DNA from: a virus
Taxonomy: Duplodnaviria > Caudoviricetes
IMG/VR virus record: IMGVR_UViG_3300035208_002804
Coordinates: 32,001 to 96,000 of that record
Direction: 5' to 3' (one strand)
Length of the DNA: 64,000 bases
The notes under the pieces are model-generated. The model made no database searches, was not told the origin of the DNA, and was given only the letters and a program-made list of their open reading frames with translations. Position numbers and translations under genes: made by a program. Below, one piece after another: positions 2,030-56,826 of the stretch. How positions within the stretch are numbered: the first letter of the stretch is position 1; every line of letters begins with the position of its first letter.

Positions 2030-2112
2030 ATCCTGCAAAAGAAAAAAGGAAGATTTCTCTTCTCCGTTCTCTCCTGTCTACACTATTATATGTGGTTATA
2101 CTATTATTTAAA
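2030..2112 (-). ncRNA. Dispersed promoter/small-RNA-like element, copy A
   Basis: TTTAAATA (2112-2105), G of AGTGT 29 nt downstream (2083), purine-rich arm, T-tract, then TTTTGCAG; GTG is followed directly by TAG. Confidence 0.5.
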
Positions 2113-2170
2113 TATATTGCATTAAAAACACTGAAAGTTTAAAAAAGAGAAAGTTAGTTATCCCCTCTCT

Positions 2171-2407
2171 TTATGCTACGAGGGTGCCGTGGTCTTCGAG
2201 ACGGGCTACGAATACTGGGTTGTTTCCAATTGAGACAAGAACGTTAATGTCTTCATCGTGGATGAGAACTTTGTTTCCTTCTGGGTTTACGAGTTGGAAG
2301 TCGTTGTAAGTGATTTTATCTGCTTCGTTGGTGAGATCTGCATCCTGACGAATGGTATATCCATTTGCGAGTTCGATAACGATTTTTTCTGCTACAATAT
2401 CGGCCAT
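2171..2407 (-). CDS. Hypothetical protein
   Basis: 78-aa ORF co-oriented with and directly downstream of the holin-like gene. Confidence 0.55.
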   Translation of the reverse strand: MADIVAEKIVIELANGYTIRQDADLTNEADKITYNDFQLVNPEGNKVLIHDEDINVLVSIGNNPVFVARLEDHGTLVA

Positions 2408-2428
2408 AATTGTTTCCTTATATAAAAT

Positions 2429-2710
2429 TTAAATTGTTTTTCCTTCCAGGGAAGTTATTTCTGCTGGAATATTCACATCATTCTGGACTTCTTTGATGAG
2501 TTCAATAACATCTTTTCCGAACGCTTGATACTCAAGATCACTCCATGTTTTGTCAGCATCTCCCTGGAAATAGGAATTGCCAATGTCAGTAAGTTTAGTT
2601 GCAACCTTGAGATATCGAAGAGCGCGCGCGTTTGTGGCAAAATAGGTTACGAGTATACCTACAATGGTAGAAGCGACACCTATAATTGCTACCGGATCGA
2701 TATCTGGCAT
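2429..2710 (-). CDS. Small membrane protein, possible holin
   Basis: Single N-terminal hydrophobic helix (VAIIGVASTIVGILVTYF) followed by an amphipathic region; TATA box upstream. Confidence 0.4.
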   Translation of the reverse strand: MPDIDPVAIIGVASTIVGILVTYFATNARALRYLKVATKLTDIGNSYFQGDADKTWSDLEYQAFGKDVIELIKEVQNDVNIPAEITSLEGKTI

Positions 2711-2889
2711 ACAATAGAGATAAGACTGATTTCCAGTATATAAAGATAAATTTTTAAATGCTGTATAAAAAGGTTGTATATTAATGGGTAAAAGATGGGG
2801 AATTTATATATAACAAAGAAATCTTTAATTACTATTCATTCTTCTTATATGGATATGTTTATTAATAAAAACAACATATATAAATACCA

Positions 2890-55200: not shown

Positions 55201-56183
55201 TTGAATACTGTGTTATCTAAATTATTGAAATTTAATGAATATCGTCCATTTCCACGATGAGATGCCCCTAACTTTTTGTAATATGTATCAGCACCGGGTA
55301 AACTATCCCAATACATACCTTTCATACCACTTGTTTTTCCATGTGATATCAATTGGGCCATCAATTTTGTAGCAAGCCCTTTTCCACCAAAACCGGGATC
55401 AGTACCTAAATTTGGCATCCCAAAATTCTTGCCATCATTATAGTAGGACAATGCACTTGCTGGTCTTCCTGATGCTTTCTCTATTGCTGCAATCAAGCCA
55501 TAGTGCTTTGCATCTAATTGTTTGTCTTCTACTGCACGAAAAAGTTGATAGTTCCCAGAACTACTACTCATTGAATTAAACGACTTACTATATAGATCCT
55601 TGATAAACTTACTATTTTTACCAAGTTGGAAATGTTTAAAGTCAAATTGAGAACCCATCTGAAACTTCGGTATCATACCACCAGATGCTTTTCCTAATTT
55701 TCCTTGTGCTCTCATCAATGACGACATAACACGGGAATCTCGTGCCACTGCTGATGAAGGTAAATTAAACCCAGTGAGTTGTTTCAATTTTCGGGCCATA
55801 TCTTTGAACACGGCATCATTAGTATGCAGTGAATTAGGATCGAATCCTTTTAATTGCGGAACCATTACATTAGAATTGTTAAATAAAGTGGACGAACGAG
55901 CAGCATGACCTATAGCATCCCTAATTTCACTTGGAACACCTTTATATATTTCAGTTGCTTTATTTGCATCAGCAGTATGCTTATCAAGGTATTCAAATCC
56001 AATTTTATTTTTAGTTATTCTATCTATATTTGAAGATTTCTCCTGATAGTTATAACTTAATAGGAATTTATCTGCCTGTTTCTTGGTATAACCAAATTTA
56101 ACGAGCATGTCCATCATTTCTACTCGTGATGTCCCACCAAGCATCATCTTGGCAAGCCACTTATTTAACAACTCATCCGACAT
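49299..56183 (-). CDS. Tape measure protein (2294 aa) with embedded GNAT domain
   Basis: Follows tail tube and chaperone; long Ala/Gly helical and hydrophobic tracts; FAxGG...GE-x-V motifs typical of TMPs. Confidence 0.8.
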   Translation of the reverse strand: MSDELLNKWLAKMMLGGTSRVEMMDMLVKFGYTKKQADKFLLSYNYQEKSSNIDRITKNKIGFEYLDKHTADANKATEIYKGVPSEIRDAIGHAARSSTLFNNSNVMVPQLKGFDPNSLHTNDAVFKDMARKLKQLTGFNLPSSAVARDSRVMSSLMRAQGKLGKASGGMIPKFQMGSQFDFKHFQLGKNSKFIKDLYSKSFNSMSSSSGNYQLFRAVEDKQLDAKHYGLIAAIEKASGRPASALSYYNDGKNFGMPNLGTDPGFGGKGLATKLMAQLISHGKTSGMKGMYWDSLPGADTYYKKLGASHRGNGRYSLNFNNLDNTVFKQNGGQMKKYFAGGLEALASPELLMGAFGGIQSGLGIMGGIGGGALAIDLIKRFQQNKFFERFGSGDLTSDGVKRFQKLMNLKQFQGESNDAYGNVVQNNPFMDANIGRLSQQFNKNSWLTNLKRRFGRASGGKIQGRGTSISDSIGANLSPGSYILDRDTVQALGENFLNKVTGNSTYKGLASGGYGSPNAMISNGEWLLNPSQSASLGGPKILDQLRGMSNDRVLSPKERSRLPFASGGNIPGFKDGSEFSINDLKRPITNENSVIDMLTRSDIKDAVQKADPGTTRLSYNQMFGKSTLTPGSNNLPSRGNTRTSYAEPTDMGNMGKSDLTRFILNSFSENKLKNVDPTKSAHEIATTLSDSLSKQFKKGITVNKIADMKIGKQLEGSLRGREPGFLQDPFKYIGFIEKELKPFATNIATSGKIPSGPSTTKYTNNVNQVTDILDNIRPDLIDFNKRIETSNKSLAELNRKYQEATKYNKLPDISGIDANYNPSKSDLNRRKQLADELSGKNKQYENLPNITTFERRISKKSGGPYDVIPDISGIDANYNPSEADLANRKLIDLELEQETAKRKQEEKERKEKLAALVEVRNNKIARDKNRSNALRDYNDVDLQYNTRHDDELGSIRKYNTGLLAKPYDVRNQDNNVQGIGNKFNALMNRGGSKFSEIYNRAQNVGYEKTRVTTGQVLGSPFNLTKGISWKELREDYAGSIKKARDTSGKMFTDVVGGIEEQMKDFTANKLGNRLGGNVAREMVKVSPQLERDSKSGEITGTLTYSLELLTERLKKTGMDAKDAEGFIGEFDKKLEELSGNRTVKSTTLDSRKTTEPEKFGVLANTSKWSKDLSWRAASLSMSSMGVYFSLMGIFMALSSAVTSLTGSLSDLNTVFKNVGYVNAFSGSANKANEIMGKFGVTQKDLVKGWENVTYAQSAFGLSMSSLAASIFKDKNFTDGLVDSIGSLFTKLAEKDTMEGFTKFLTAGAKALPEVVDALKWVTSGLTLVGDHPGLIKIAAQMYGITLLLQPLTSGVSLFLSGFGQAAGAVKALKQVNMAVDALNLGMNGIALKAGLAVIALEAVGQAYQWISGQEAPWWLKPISSAGAVLSGVNPITQEKMFAEGGAIGGPNTAAIDDKTVRVEEGEYVINKRSASKLGKNTLDQLNKFATGGSIGLLQNSSGMSVSGYAINKSDTDTFGFKIYNKTDENATASKSSAKVLVAAAESDGIGVYIRNWKDGWQNGNDEKGGMPFDMGLPQRWIYGFLGNPNGMTGNGMGVNPNPSPSPEDNLNEESFWRPDENVNPNPQVNENPNPNANPNPSTLPSSYTGAVANLLQTAFESFKQTVGAAIDSIAHSAMESLKALMNGAETAGNVIKDLGLALLTLDNGKVVEMLQKGAGAVKGAATTVGGNLASAYGGRSLGGILNSDSLAQHAYYRAPGDVKDYGPTGVRNAGFWDKFVNGKYEYPEMPSKQSPSIVDRLFNKGKFSATSPVKGKDQLTGKEIGVLDVVDLLSVGTNVNQNRDPYSAALELNNQIAMNALTGGGERVMEQGSRVLPAMISRVVGSGPARNTAASWAGKAVGGVGATTLDLMKLAGAPEAVVLSGLAEGGIANENFMNGVPLDEITQGTGKGKYNNASGIFTSNLIQSGYGRGMGVWGKRFGLNEEQMRDTLNQNKGLMDFSVMPGFVAQQAVKGLGMSDQYNGFWNKLKGGNTAVSDMIRGTNVSLPTPLGNLEVSGGIADLNSSIYDLIGSLANLDVGSIFGAGTGLIGTGESLGVMGGKLAEEVTQDPAALLSLAMTGIVPVIGPALANMLLPETTAKISTGVNEDDITQPATLQSLNDGMITTAKGFSIVNGELDAVSNEGLPAFYNKLMTGSETYNVNPENNSGNYSFVSKTNENEFTSIQLVKTAETLKQEQIISQSTTQPQKVEISVNVQGDDSNVIASKVKTDLVAMIEQIVRSILPTTQPTTSRL
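53541..53755. repeat. Exact 41-bp direct repeat inside the tape measure gene (53541-53581 and 53715-53755)
   Basis: agatggattataattagcatcaattccagaaatatctggta occurs twice; encodes PDISGIDANYNPS. Confidence 0.9.
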
Positions 56184-56342
56184 TATATAAGAGAAAGAGA
56201 TTTACGGTATTTAAATAAACAATAAGAAGAAGAGAAAAGAGAGAAAGTTACTAAATTATTATAAAGTATAATACAAACTATAAAATAGAGAAAGAAGAGG
56301 AAGAAAGGAAATATATGGAATCAATAACTGCTAACCAAAAGG

Positions 56343-56480
56343 TTTAAATACTCGTAATGTTATAAAGTAAAGTGCATCCCAAGAACAAGTTAAAATGAAA
56401 GGAAGACAGATTGACCACCTGTTTTCTTTTCTTCTTTTTTCTTGTTAGGCAGGTTGTTTCGTGCTATTTTCGTGGTCTGT
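56343..56480 (+). ncRNA. Dispersed promoter/small-RNA-like element, copy E
   Basis: TTTAAATA at 56343, AGTGC with G at 56372, purine arm, T-tract, TTGTTAG...GTGGTCTG. Confidence 0.5.
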
Positions 56481-56734
56481 TTTGCGATTTAACTGTTTTA
56501 CATCGGCTTTTAATTGGATGGCTATATTAGGCAGGACCGGAATCACAATTGTGAATTATGAAGTGATGAAAATAGTTAAGTGTTATTAAATTGTAGAAAA
56601 GTGTTACTTGCTAATAGTATCCGGTAGATGGGAATTTAACCCATATATGTTCAATGTCACCGGTTCTTTAGCGTTGTCATGACACCGAACGGGTTTTCTA
56701 CTAACTGCTTAATTACTACCGGTCAACAACCACA

Positions 56735-56826
56735 CATGCTAAAACTCATAACAAAGAAAAGAAAAAGAAGAGGATCCTTTCTCTGCTACTTGTTGCACTA
56801 TATAGTTGTTGGTAATAGTATTTATA
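56735..56826 (-). ncRNA. Dispersed promoter/small-RNA-like element, copy F
   Basis: TATAAATA at 56826, AGTGC with G at 56798, GAAAGGATCCTCT, T-tract, TTGTTATGAGTTTTAGCATGTGTGG. Confidence 0.55.

Follow-up and report, generated by a model that had tools for sequence, protein, structure and literature searches.

A multicopy family of candidate small hairpin RNA genes in three lineages of probable head-tailed archaeal viruses

Introduction

Bacteria encode multicopy 'sibling' small RNAs (sRNAs), exemplified by Qrr1-5 and LhrC1-5, whose paralogous genes each have their own promoter and terminator and whose products consist of a conserved single-stranded 5′ part followed by a terminal hairpin and a U-tail. 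Eukaryotic viruses produce abundant small RNAs that act through bound proteins, including Herpesvirus saimiri HSUR1-7, which carry Sm sites, the adenovirus VA RNAs, and the EBERs of Epstein-Barr virus (EBV). In phage lambda, the PR'-6S RNA-tR' module under Q antitermination places a terminator within ~100-200 nt of a strong promoter and yields a short default RNA. To our knowledge, almost nothing is known about the non-coding RNAs of archaeal viruses, and the only tailed viruses of peatland methanogens that we know of are metagenomic contigs. Here we describe a family of dispersed non-coding units in a 64,000-nt window of the IMG/VR virus record IMGVR_UViG_3300035208_002804 (bases 32001-96000 of a 136,274-bp contig; 32.7% G+C; the whole viral genome is referred to as G000). 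Each unit places a TATA box at a narrowly defined distance from a short start motif and continues into a predicted purine/pyrimidine hairpin. We consider it probable, though well short of certain, that the units are genes in their own right, each specifying a small structured non-coding RNA of a head-tailed archaeal virus.

Units of one design occur in three related viral lineages

A first-pass annotation of the window reported six intergenic loci (units A-F; Table 1) with a common architecture. Our analysis reproduced the coordinates and strands of all six, as well as their spacing: the G of AGTG(C/T) lies 29, 29, 28, 29, 29, and 28 nt from the first base of the TATA box in A-F. The pattern T[TA]TA[AT]ATA, 18-19 nt, [AT]AGTG[CT] matches the window at these six units only, compared to a mean of 0.08 matches expected by chance in first-order Markov sequences of the window's composition (a control that used a spacing window of equal width, shifted by one base). 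An unbiased repeat search of the window likewise placed the units among the top repeat families (D6, D18, I1, and I3). The near-identity that the annotation had noted between D and F amounts to 89% over 57 nt, with an indel.

All six copies are real, but the count was incomplete, since the whole G000 genome contains 11. The five copies beyond the window lie at genome positions 12412 (+; G1), 16144 (-; X), 105802 (+; N3), 118457 (+; H), and 121965 (-; N5), with N3 and N5 bearing 5′ extensions of ~7 and ~27 nt. Similarity between the G000 copies ends ~90-110 nt past the start.

Units of the same design are present in other viruses. G001 (IMGVR_UViG_3300014204_000002), which was reached through a terminase search and has a terminase 49% identical to that of G000, is a complete genome of 143,525 bp (38.9% G+C) that has direct terminal repeats. 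Its ten units consist of a TATA box, the nearly invariant sequence ACACAACTAAATGATGC, a short C/A-rich linker, and a 13-15 bp purine/pyrimidine hairpin ending in CUUUUGUUA, past which come U(A/G)G, a short stretch rich in G/C, and a U4 run. A search with NrdD led to an 11-kb contig (31% G+C) in a 'Saccharibacteria' metagenome-assembled genome (MAG; G005), on which a unit sits upstream of NrdD, and a profile search with the 3′ part of the units brought the total in G005 to at least nine on several contigs. These copies combine a near-invariant promoter, TTTAAATACAATTAGGTGTAATYTTATTA followed by GTGCC, with a tail of their own, GGUUUUAGGGAGACC plus a U/C tract. The G005 virus encodes an NrdD 68% identical and a tail chaperone 59% identical to those of G000, and the presence of low-GC viral contigs in a Candidatus Saccharibacteria MAG is evidently a binning artefact (the MAG is the one that holds CAZCND010000023.1; the loci are L137, L213, L216, L219, L222, L225, L228, L231, L237, and L238). 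A further 4.4-kb contig, L008, carries one G001-type unit.

A covariance model built from the G001 copies alone finds the G005 and L008 copies (E 0.003-0.1). Within each lineage the ends of the units are homogenised and the hairpin interiors differ. Extending the search to the whole genome and to related viruses, as the annotation had suggested, gives 11 copies in G000, ten in G001, at least nine in G005, and one in L008; the TATA-to-start spacing, loss of which in related genomes the annotation had named as grounds for refutation, is kept in these relatives. The family is thus common to three related viral lineages, with about ten copies in each. A second scan of IMG/VR with a terminase alignment returned no new relatives. 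Three kinds of match were discarded: a single exact-pattern match to the tail motif in IMG/VR, which lies in a coding region and is due to chance; more than 100 chance matches in an IMG/VR scan with a 15-mer of the G001 promoter; and a match of model R1 in L173, a coding-region false positive.

Unit promoters resemble those of methanogen stable RNAs

In every lineage, a TTTAWATA box is followed 28-31 nt on by the G of (G/A)TGC. All six window copies have a TTTA(T/A)ATA box, which the other copies match exactly or within one base, and its first T lies 28-29 nt ahead of the first G of GTGC and 30-31 nt ahead of the second. GTGC or ATGC is present in ~29 of the 31 copies (A and N5 have GTGT), and an A/T-rich stretch precedes the start. 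Stable-RNA promoters of methanogens (Methanococcales) have a box A of TTTATATA and prefer T at -1, G at +1, and C at +2, and a TATA pattern of this kind is said to be confined to methanogens (PMC2699501). Their initiator, or box B, is (A/T)TGC (Wich 1986 and Thomm & Wich 1988, as summarised in PMC2699501). The unit promoters appear to be near-consensus members of this type, in a comparison where the consensus is that of Methanococcales and the host of the virus is itself a prediction.

This assignment bears on where the RNA begins. The annotation placed the start at the conserved first G of GTGC; a start at a conserved G is retained here, but because the stable-RNA initiator has T at -1, G at +1, and C at +2, it is more likely the second G of GTGC (ATGC in G001), so that the RNA would begin GC rather than GUG. 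With a start at the second G, the apparent 5′-terminal start codon therefore disappears. Protein genes of G000, most of them structural, use a slightly different promoter, in which TTTAWATA is followed by 2 nt and GTAAA and the ATG lies 31-35 nt from the first T (examples are found at 15465-15498 and, on the minus strand, at 56183-56216). The unit promoters differ from this protein-gene class in having a 3-nt spacer and then GTAAT/GTATA.

A purine/pyrimidine hairpin with a two-part tail

The anatomy of the predicted RNA was drawn from independent minimum-free-energy folds of most copies, which bear out the annotation's view that the purine arm pairs with the T/C tract. A C/A-rich linker of 3-12 nt follows GTGC and leads into a long hairpin, at the base of which (U)AACA(A/G)G pairs with CUU(U)UGUUA. 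The 5′ arm is nearly all purine and the 3′ arm nearly all U/C; the stem measures 13-20 bp, and long copies carry interior insertions. Seven of the ten G000 copies tested fold at z ≤ -2.7 relative to dinucleotide shuffles. A closing helix between the 5′ and 3′ ends (GUGC with GCAU or GCAC) recurs in G000 folds and is not claimed here, being too short and inconsistent in G001 and G005.

Downstream of the hairpin, U(G/A)NNG leads into a run of U4-5, which is followed by a G/C-containing motif and then by a second tract, again rich in U/C. The shared tail described in the annotation is thus present, but it splits into two sub-types and extends into the second U-tract. Of the two sub-types in G000, one has GCAU..GUGGUCUGG as its G/C-containing motif and the other has GGUUGUCGC..GCAC. 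In unit B the 3′ part is tandemly duplicated (15367-15430; a U/C tract then CAG(A)GUGUUUUAG, twice, ~37 nt apart), which could act as a stack of terminators or give the purine arm another sequence to pair with, and a weaker second copy of the 3′ part is seen in C, E, and H.

Runs of T5-T7 fall within the 3′ arm, and T4-T6 runs occur further on in the tail. Sense-strand T5 runs are common in open reading frames (ORFs) of G000 (118 in 83 kb; observed/expected ratio, O/E, 0.83), so an internal T5 need not halt the polymerase; T6+ runs are ~two-fold depleted in ORFs (O/E 0.51 vs 0.79 for A6+). Conservation through the first tail U-tract and the next motif suggests that a good share of transcripts extend at least that far. 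As conservation and pairing span the hairpin into the tail, an RNA of ~60-130 nt is more likely than the 30-60 nt originally proposed.

Selection on structure appears specific to the promoter strand

G.U pairs inform on the strand that carries a functional fold, because a G.U pair turns into an A.C mismatch on the opposite strand. For stem statistics, each hairpin was anchored at its base and its first 12 positions were read ungapped. Pair statistics were scripted separately; MAFFT put the 5′ arms out of register when whole units or hairpins were aligned, and the alignment from the covariance-model search, with its antisense and spurious rows, was kept out of the statistics.

Across the first 12 stem positions of 31 copies, we counted 66 G.U/U.G pairs vs 2 A.C appositions (53 vs 0 in a 23-copy count). 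This imbalance therefore indicates that the structure is selected in RNA, and the near-absence of A.C is hard to explain without selection on the promoter-strand transcript. Predicted stabilities run in the same direction: in 31/31 copies the promoter strand gives the more stable hairpin core (mean difference -6.95 kcal/mol, Wilcoxon p 1e-6), and with tails included this strand is more stable in 21 of 23 copies, by 8.4 kcal/mol. Pairing of a 5′ arm with the 3′ arm of the same copy covers 93% of the 12 positions, vs 72% with the arms of other copies, and none of 20,000 permutations reached the observed count. A compensatory double change distinguishes UAAUAAG/CUUAUUA in G1 from UAACAAG/CUUGUUA in H. 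The purine-first order of the arms was dropped as strand evidence, since the reverse complement is also purine-first.

A hairpin of another kind provides a useful contrast to the units. At L210:1514-1563 (G005:C17), a perfect 23-bp Watson-Crick hairpin (CCCAAAAACAAAAAGAGAACACU / AGUGUUCUCUUUUUGUUUUUGGG), without a unit-type promoter and without G.U pairs, looks like an ordinary bidirectional terminator.

Conserved positions and the possibility of terminator cassettes

In each of the three lineages, units occur in the gap that separates the tail chaperone gene from the tape-measure gene. In G000 it contains the convergent pair F and E; in G005 (contig C8) a convergent pair in the same order lies between the 59%-identical chaperone and a tape-measure homologue; and in G001 a single unit, g4, sits beside the start of the tape-measure gene in the orientation of E. 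A second slot, upstream of ribonucleotide reductase (RNR) genes, is occupied by B (NrdD, G000), m1 (NrdD, G005), and g2 (G001). The RNR encoded just after g2 is of the class I/II type, not NrdD, so a unit occupies this slot even where the RNR class differs. Copies in the same slot have no common hairpin sequence, and the interior therefore seems to be constrained in kind (purine/pyrimidine and paired) rather than in sequence.

A promoter in these slots might also serve the genes around it. In the main rival to an RNA-gene explanation, which we nonetheless think improbable, the units are promoter-proximal terminator cassettes that yield a short abortive RNA by default, and a viral antiterminator, perhaps bound to the lineage-specific sequence between TATA box and start, allows read-through into downstream genes, or antisense into convergent ones, as a means of temporal control. 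The TATA-to-start sequence is indeed near-invariant within a lineage and different between lineages, as for a co-evolving DNA-binding factor; the U/C-rich 3′ arm resembles tracts that follow many genes of the virus; and a unit stands upstream of RNR genes in three lineages. Orientation gives a divided picture. Among the 21 units of the two complete genomes, the next ORF is co-oriented in 12, starting 76-615 nt downstream, but the other nine oppose a convergent gene, some within ~60 nt, and at g3 the convergent gene ends ~10 nt past the hairpin. The neighbouring genes that were checked, moreover, are self-promoted: a separate TATA-NN-GTAAA promoter, with an ATG ~31 nt downstream, serves the gene that follows B, and promoters of the TATA-NN(N)-GTAAA type likewise precede the RNR gene after g2 and the tape-measure gene. 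Given these promoters and the many convergent placements, the units are not needed as promoters for their neighbours, which argues that they are free-standing RNA genes rather than mRNA leaders or attenuators. The apparent selection on a whole, G.U-tolerant stem also exceeds the known needs of archaeal oligo-U termination, and no antiterminator candidate was identified.

RNA-repair-type genes adjoin units in both viruses. In G000 (window 13696-14889), RtcB is followed by a 113-aa ORF and then unit B; in G001 (120125-122068; L015:125-2068), a CCA-adding/HD-domain enzyme is followed by a PIN-like 115-aa ORF and unit g6.

DNA-level elements, replication origins, and peptides

Rather than encoding a functional RNA, the units could act at the level of DNA or transcription, as insulators, as bidirectional terminators at operon borders, or as decoy promoters for the host's TATA-binding protein (TBP), transcription factor B (TFB), or RNA polymerase, with any RNA a by-product. 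Such roles would suit near-consensus promoters located at gene-cluster borders and convergence points, and a hairpin whose reverse complement is also purine-first could act on oncoming transcripts. The strand asymmetry described above (66 G.U vs 2 A.C; 31/31) nevertheless points to selection on the promoter-strand transcript, the pyrimidine arm on the opposite strand has short U runs only, and a pure terminator needs no promoter of its own at a fixed distance. We accordingly regard a DNA-level role as distinctly unlikely.

The annotation also raised the possibility that the units are transcription-primed replication origins, at which a purine-rich nascent RNA forms an R-loop that primes DNA synthesis (cf. 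T4 oriF/oriG and ColE1). Purine-rich RNA is known to form stable RNA:DNA hybrids, E and F converge within a gap that contains no genes, and near 56 kb the window's cumulative GC skew dips to a shallow local minimum. Over the two complete genomes, however, the skew goes with gene orientation and local composition, and there is no consistent minimum at the 11 + 10 units. Ten or more origins per 140 kb would be unprecedented, the intramolecular G.U pairing that seems to be selected would compete with R-loop formation, and no conserved A/T-rich unwinding element lies downstream. Strand-specific, G.U-rich stems indicate a folded RNA rather than an RNA:DNA hybrid. The origin-primer idea therefore finds no support here; it is the least supported of the proposals and, in our estimation, very unlikely.

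Translation of a 5′-terminal GUG or AUG into tiny leaderless peptides is close to refuted: although the GTG/ATG lies near the leaderless start position relative to the TATA box (offsets 28-29 vs 31-35), the frames run for 1-53 codons (1, 48, 7, 53, 8, and 19 in A-F, with no conserved peptide, as the annotation had found) and share neither register nor sequence, copy g10 of G001 lacks a start codon there, and the stable-RNA initiator puts the start inside the would-be codon.

The units do not match catalogued RNA classes or mobile elements

The annotation did not recognise the element, and database searches agree. Rfam returned no match at the gathering threshold and, at E ≤ 5, only a 22.9-bit chance match to ctRNA_p42d (gathering score 50) that overlaps unit A, and ARAGORN found no tRNA in the window or in the whole G000 genome. 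In G001, 3-4 tRNA genes lie near the genome ends (922-1003, 2112-2186, and 137398-137542); G000 has none.

Known archaeal and mobile RNA types were considered and rejected. C/D box sRNAs were set aside because inspection of the 31 copies revealed no conserved CUGA and no tandem G.A partner; relative to the C box RUGAUGA, the 5′ ends of the G001 copies read (A)UGAUGC and those of the G000 and G005 copies GUGC. An H/ACA sRNA is not indicated either, as the hairpin is followed by UGAG, UAGAG, or GGCAG and never by ACA, and many stems are uninterrupted over 13-15 bp. A miniature inverted-repeat transposable element (MITE) or a gene-less IS200/IS605 remnant (with a TnpB guide RNA) is at odds with the conservation of two unit positions across three lineages. 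The sole transposase-like ORF (61951-63084) has no OrfB/TnpB domain, and neither complete virus has a reverse transcriptase gene. A solitary CRISPR repeat unit or an RNA anti-CRISPR, which would mimic the CRISPR repeat of the host, is a separate candidate; the units show no repeat-spacer-repeat layout of the kind found in CRISPR arrays.

Apart from other copies and matches of low complexity, a search for antisense targets in the viral genomes returned only two 14-15-mers, at close to the chance level. One 15-nt match, also near chance, joins the apical part of N3 (genome 105820-105835) in perfect complementarity to genome 120417-120431. Our literature search found nothing like these units described for archaeal viruses. 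The element is thus uncatalogued; as a kind, a virus-encoded multicopy small-RNA family, it is precedented in bacteria and in eukaryotic viruses.

A proposed role and the points against it

The annotation's proposal of separately promoted, non-coding units that make small RNAs with a variable core remains the most likely account, with the start and length revised as above. If the units are free-standing RNA genes, a near-consensus methanogen stable-RNA promoter would drive strong transcription by the basal machinery of the host. The transcript would begin GC (or GUGC) with a short C/A-rich single-stranded leader, continue into one long hairpin whose purine-only 5′ arm pairs with the U/C-rich 3′ arm through many G.U pairs, and finish with a U-rich single-stranded stretch and further U-tracts, where transcription would end, for a total of ~60-130 nt. 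About ten such genes would be kept per genome, with homogenised ends and an interior free to vary so long as it remains purine/pyrimidine and paired.

Since the hairpin sequence is free and its type, the ends, and the U-rich site are kept, these RNAs would be expected to act through shape and protein binding. Our best guess is that an abundant trans-acting RNA binds or titrates a protein, recognised by shape and U-rich site, and so functions as a decoy, sponge, or scaffold, with a host Sm-like or other RNA-binding protein as the candidate partner. We do not think that the RNAs are sequence-specific guides, because copies in the same slot lack a common hairpin sequence. An Sm site is a single-stranded RAU(4-6)GR with helices on both sides. 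In sub-type I copies only, the hairpin leads into an Sm-like motif, AGUUUUUGA or AGUUUUAG, sub-type II having GGUUGU at this point, and U4 tracts are present in G001 and G005 tails; the apparent resemblance of the sub-type I U-rich site to an Sm site is only a lead. A more specific and considerably more speculative scenario is that ~ten kinds of hairpin RNA flood the cell and capture a host RNA-binding factor, candidates for which include an Sm-like protein, an RNA-decay or termination factor, and an RNA-sensing defence protein. In a bolder variant, the units would double as decoy promoters that drain host TBP/TFB.

Several points weigh against the interpretation of the units as structured RNA genes. 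Expression, RNA ends, and abundance are all deduced from sequence. Three of the ten G000 copies tested, A, H, and N3, fold no better than shuffles (z -0.55, -1.42, and -1.60), and the helix closing the 5′ end on the tail has just 3-6 bp and is inconsistent across lineages. The T5-T7 runs of the 3′ arm could stop archaeal RNA polymerase before the hairpin is complete. Composition alone yields ~72-85% pairing between purine and pyrimidine arms, and because the copies are paralogues, the permutation tests overstate their independence. Recent duplication or gene conversion, instead of function, could account for tails being conserved within a genome, and no copy lies within 10 kb of the terminase gene in more distant terminase relatives (33-48% identity). 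For the protein-binding role in particular, neither complete virus contains an Sm-like (LSM) gene.

The virus and its host

IMG/VR lists the G000 record as linear and ~95% complete. The genome encodes tail proteins, a 2294-aa tape-measure-like protein, and PKD/DUF2341 surface proteins, as well as an intein-bearing NrdD, RtcB, and a radical-SAM/glycosyltransferase fusion. Its terminase is only 22-25% identical to those of GenBank phages, TATA boxes lie ~30 nt ahead of the start codons of its genes, and the closest cellular NrdD sequences (~50% identical) come from MAGs of Methanoregula and other Methanomicrobia from peat, bog, and fen. G000 is probably a head-tailed archaeal virus, and its predicted host is a methanogen.

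Other features of the genome were recorded in passing. The transposase-like ORF mentioned above encodes 377 aa on the plus strand, opposite to the structural gene block within which it lies; it has N-terminal helix-turn-helix (HTH) domains (resolvase/IS630-like) and a PHROG 'endonuclease' match (phrog_4645, E 3e-52) and is probably a mobile homing-type endonuclease gene. Outside the window, genome positions 108000-116000 (76000-84000 in window numbering) have an extreme GC skew (+0.34 then -0.54 per 4 kb), and long purine-only repeats of the GAGAGAAAGUGAGAG type are found near genome 112046-112394.

Table 1. Positions and predicted features of the six units in the window (window coordinates; minus-strand features are given in the direction of transcription)
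Unit	Extent	Strand	TATA box	Start motif	Hairpin	Tail	Context
A	2011..2112	-	2112-2105	AGTGT, G at 2083; probable start 2081	2076-2036	Degenerate	Opposes 3′ end of convergent + strand ORF 1581-1865
B	15303..15412	+	15303-15310	GTGC, G at 15332; probable start 15334	13-bp purine/pyrimidine, 15342-15376	U4, GCAU, GGUCUGG; terminal U-tract to ~15411	Between RtcB operon and NrdD operon; NrdD operon's own promoter at ~15465
C	28380..28537	+	28380-28387	GTGC, G at 28408	Long, interrupted, 28421-28482	U5, GAGCAU, GCGUCUGG; U-tracts further on	
D	32108..32229	-	32229-32222	GTGC, G at 32200	14 bp, five G.U pairs, 32190-32152	UUCG-type hairpin inserted ahead of GCAU; U5 run	
E	56343..56484	+	56343-56350	GTGC, G at 56372	56384-56446	Sub-type II, GGUUGU..GUGC..GUGGUCUG + U4	Directed away from tape-measure gene, antisense to structural operon
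F	56721..56826	-	TATAAATA, 56826-56819	GTGC, G at 56798	14 bp, 56788-56749	UGAGUUUUAGCAU	Convergent with E; gap between tail chaperone gene (57122-57619, -) and tape-measure gene (49299-56183, -)

Discussion

This analysis adds the relatives, the strand test, the assignment to a promoter class, and the conserved slots. Eleven strong promoters of the tRNA/rRNA type appear to be spent by one virus on small hairpin RNAs instead of proteins, and two sister lineages do likewise from the same slots, which points to a hitherto unrecognised, and seemingly important, RNA-based step of infection. The family also offers a searchable marker for this clade of viruses, and the predicted start, strand, fold, and approximate length make the units a defined target for small-RNA sequencing of peat samples rich in methanogens. 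Should the RNAs prove to be decoys or regulators of host factors, a strategy of eukaryotic viruses and bacteriophages would be extended to archaea. Capture of a host RNA-binding factor, if true, would be the archaeal counterpart of the HSUR/VA strategy and the first RNA-decoy takeover system for an archaeal virus.

A comparison with described systems situates the units among several partial parallels. With the stable-RNA promoters of methanogens they have in common the TATA pattern, the T at -1, G at +1, and C at +2, the A/T-rich proximal element, and the box near -30. Those promoters serve tRNA and rRNA genes, whereas the units would drive a virus-specific hairpin RNA. T4 oriF/oriG and ColE1 RNA II similarly pair a promoter with a short transcript able to hybridise to its template through a purine-rich segment. 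The units, in contrast, lack an unwinding element or skew signal, occur in many copies in both orientations, and appear to be selected for an RNA hairpin.

Like lambda PR'-6S RNA-tR', a unit consists of a strong promoter closely followed by terminator-like tracts. Lambda, however, has one such module at the head of its late operon, whereas these viruses have ~ten units per genome, about half without a co-oriented gene and with self-promoted neighbours. The HSURs, VA RNAs, and EBERs resemble the units in being separately promoted from stable-RNA-type promoters, dominated by hairpins, and equipped with U-rich single-stranded sites. They are eukaryotic, and the Sm-like motif AGUUUUUGA is limited to one sub-type of the units, so the parallel is an analogy of logic and not homology. 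Finally, although the units are viral and presumably archaeal and have conserved ends in place of a defined seed, they share with Qrr1-5 and LhrC1-5 a predicted single-stranded 5′ part, a hairpin with U-tracts beyond it, and an arrangement in which a single genome carries several separately promoted paralogous small RNA genes.

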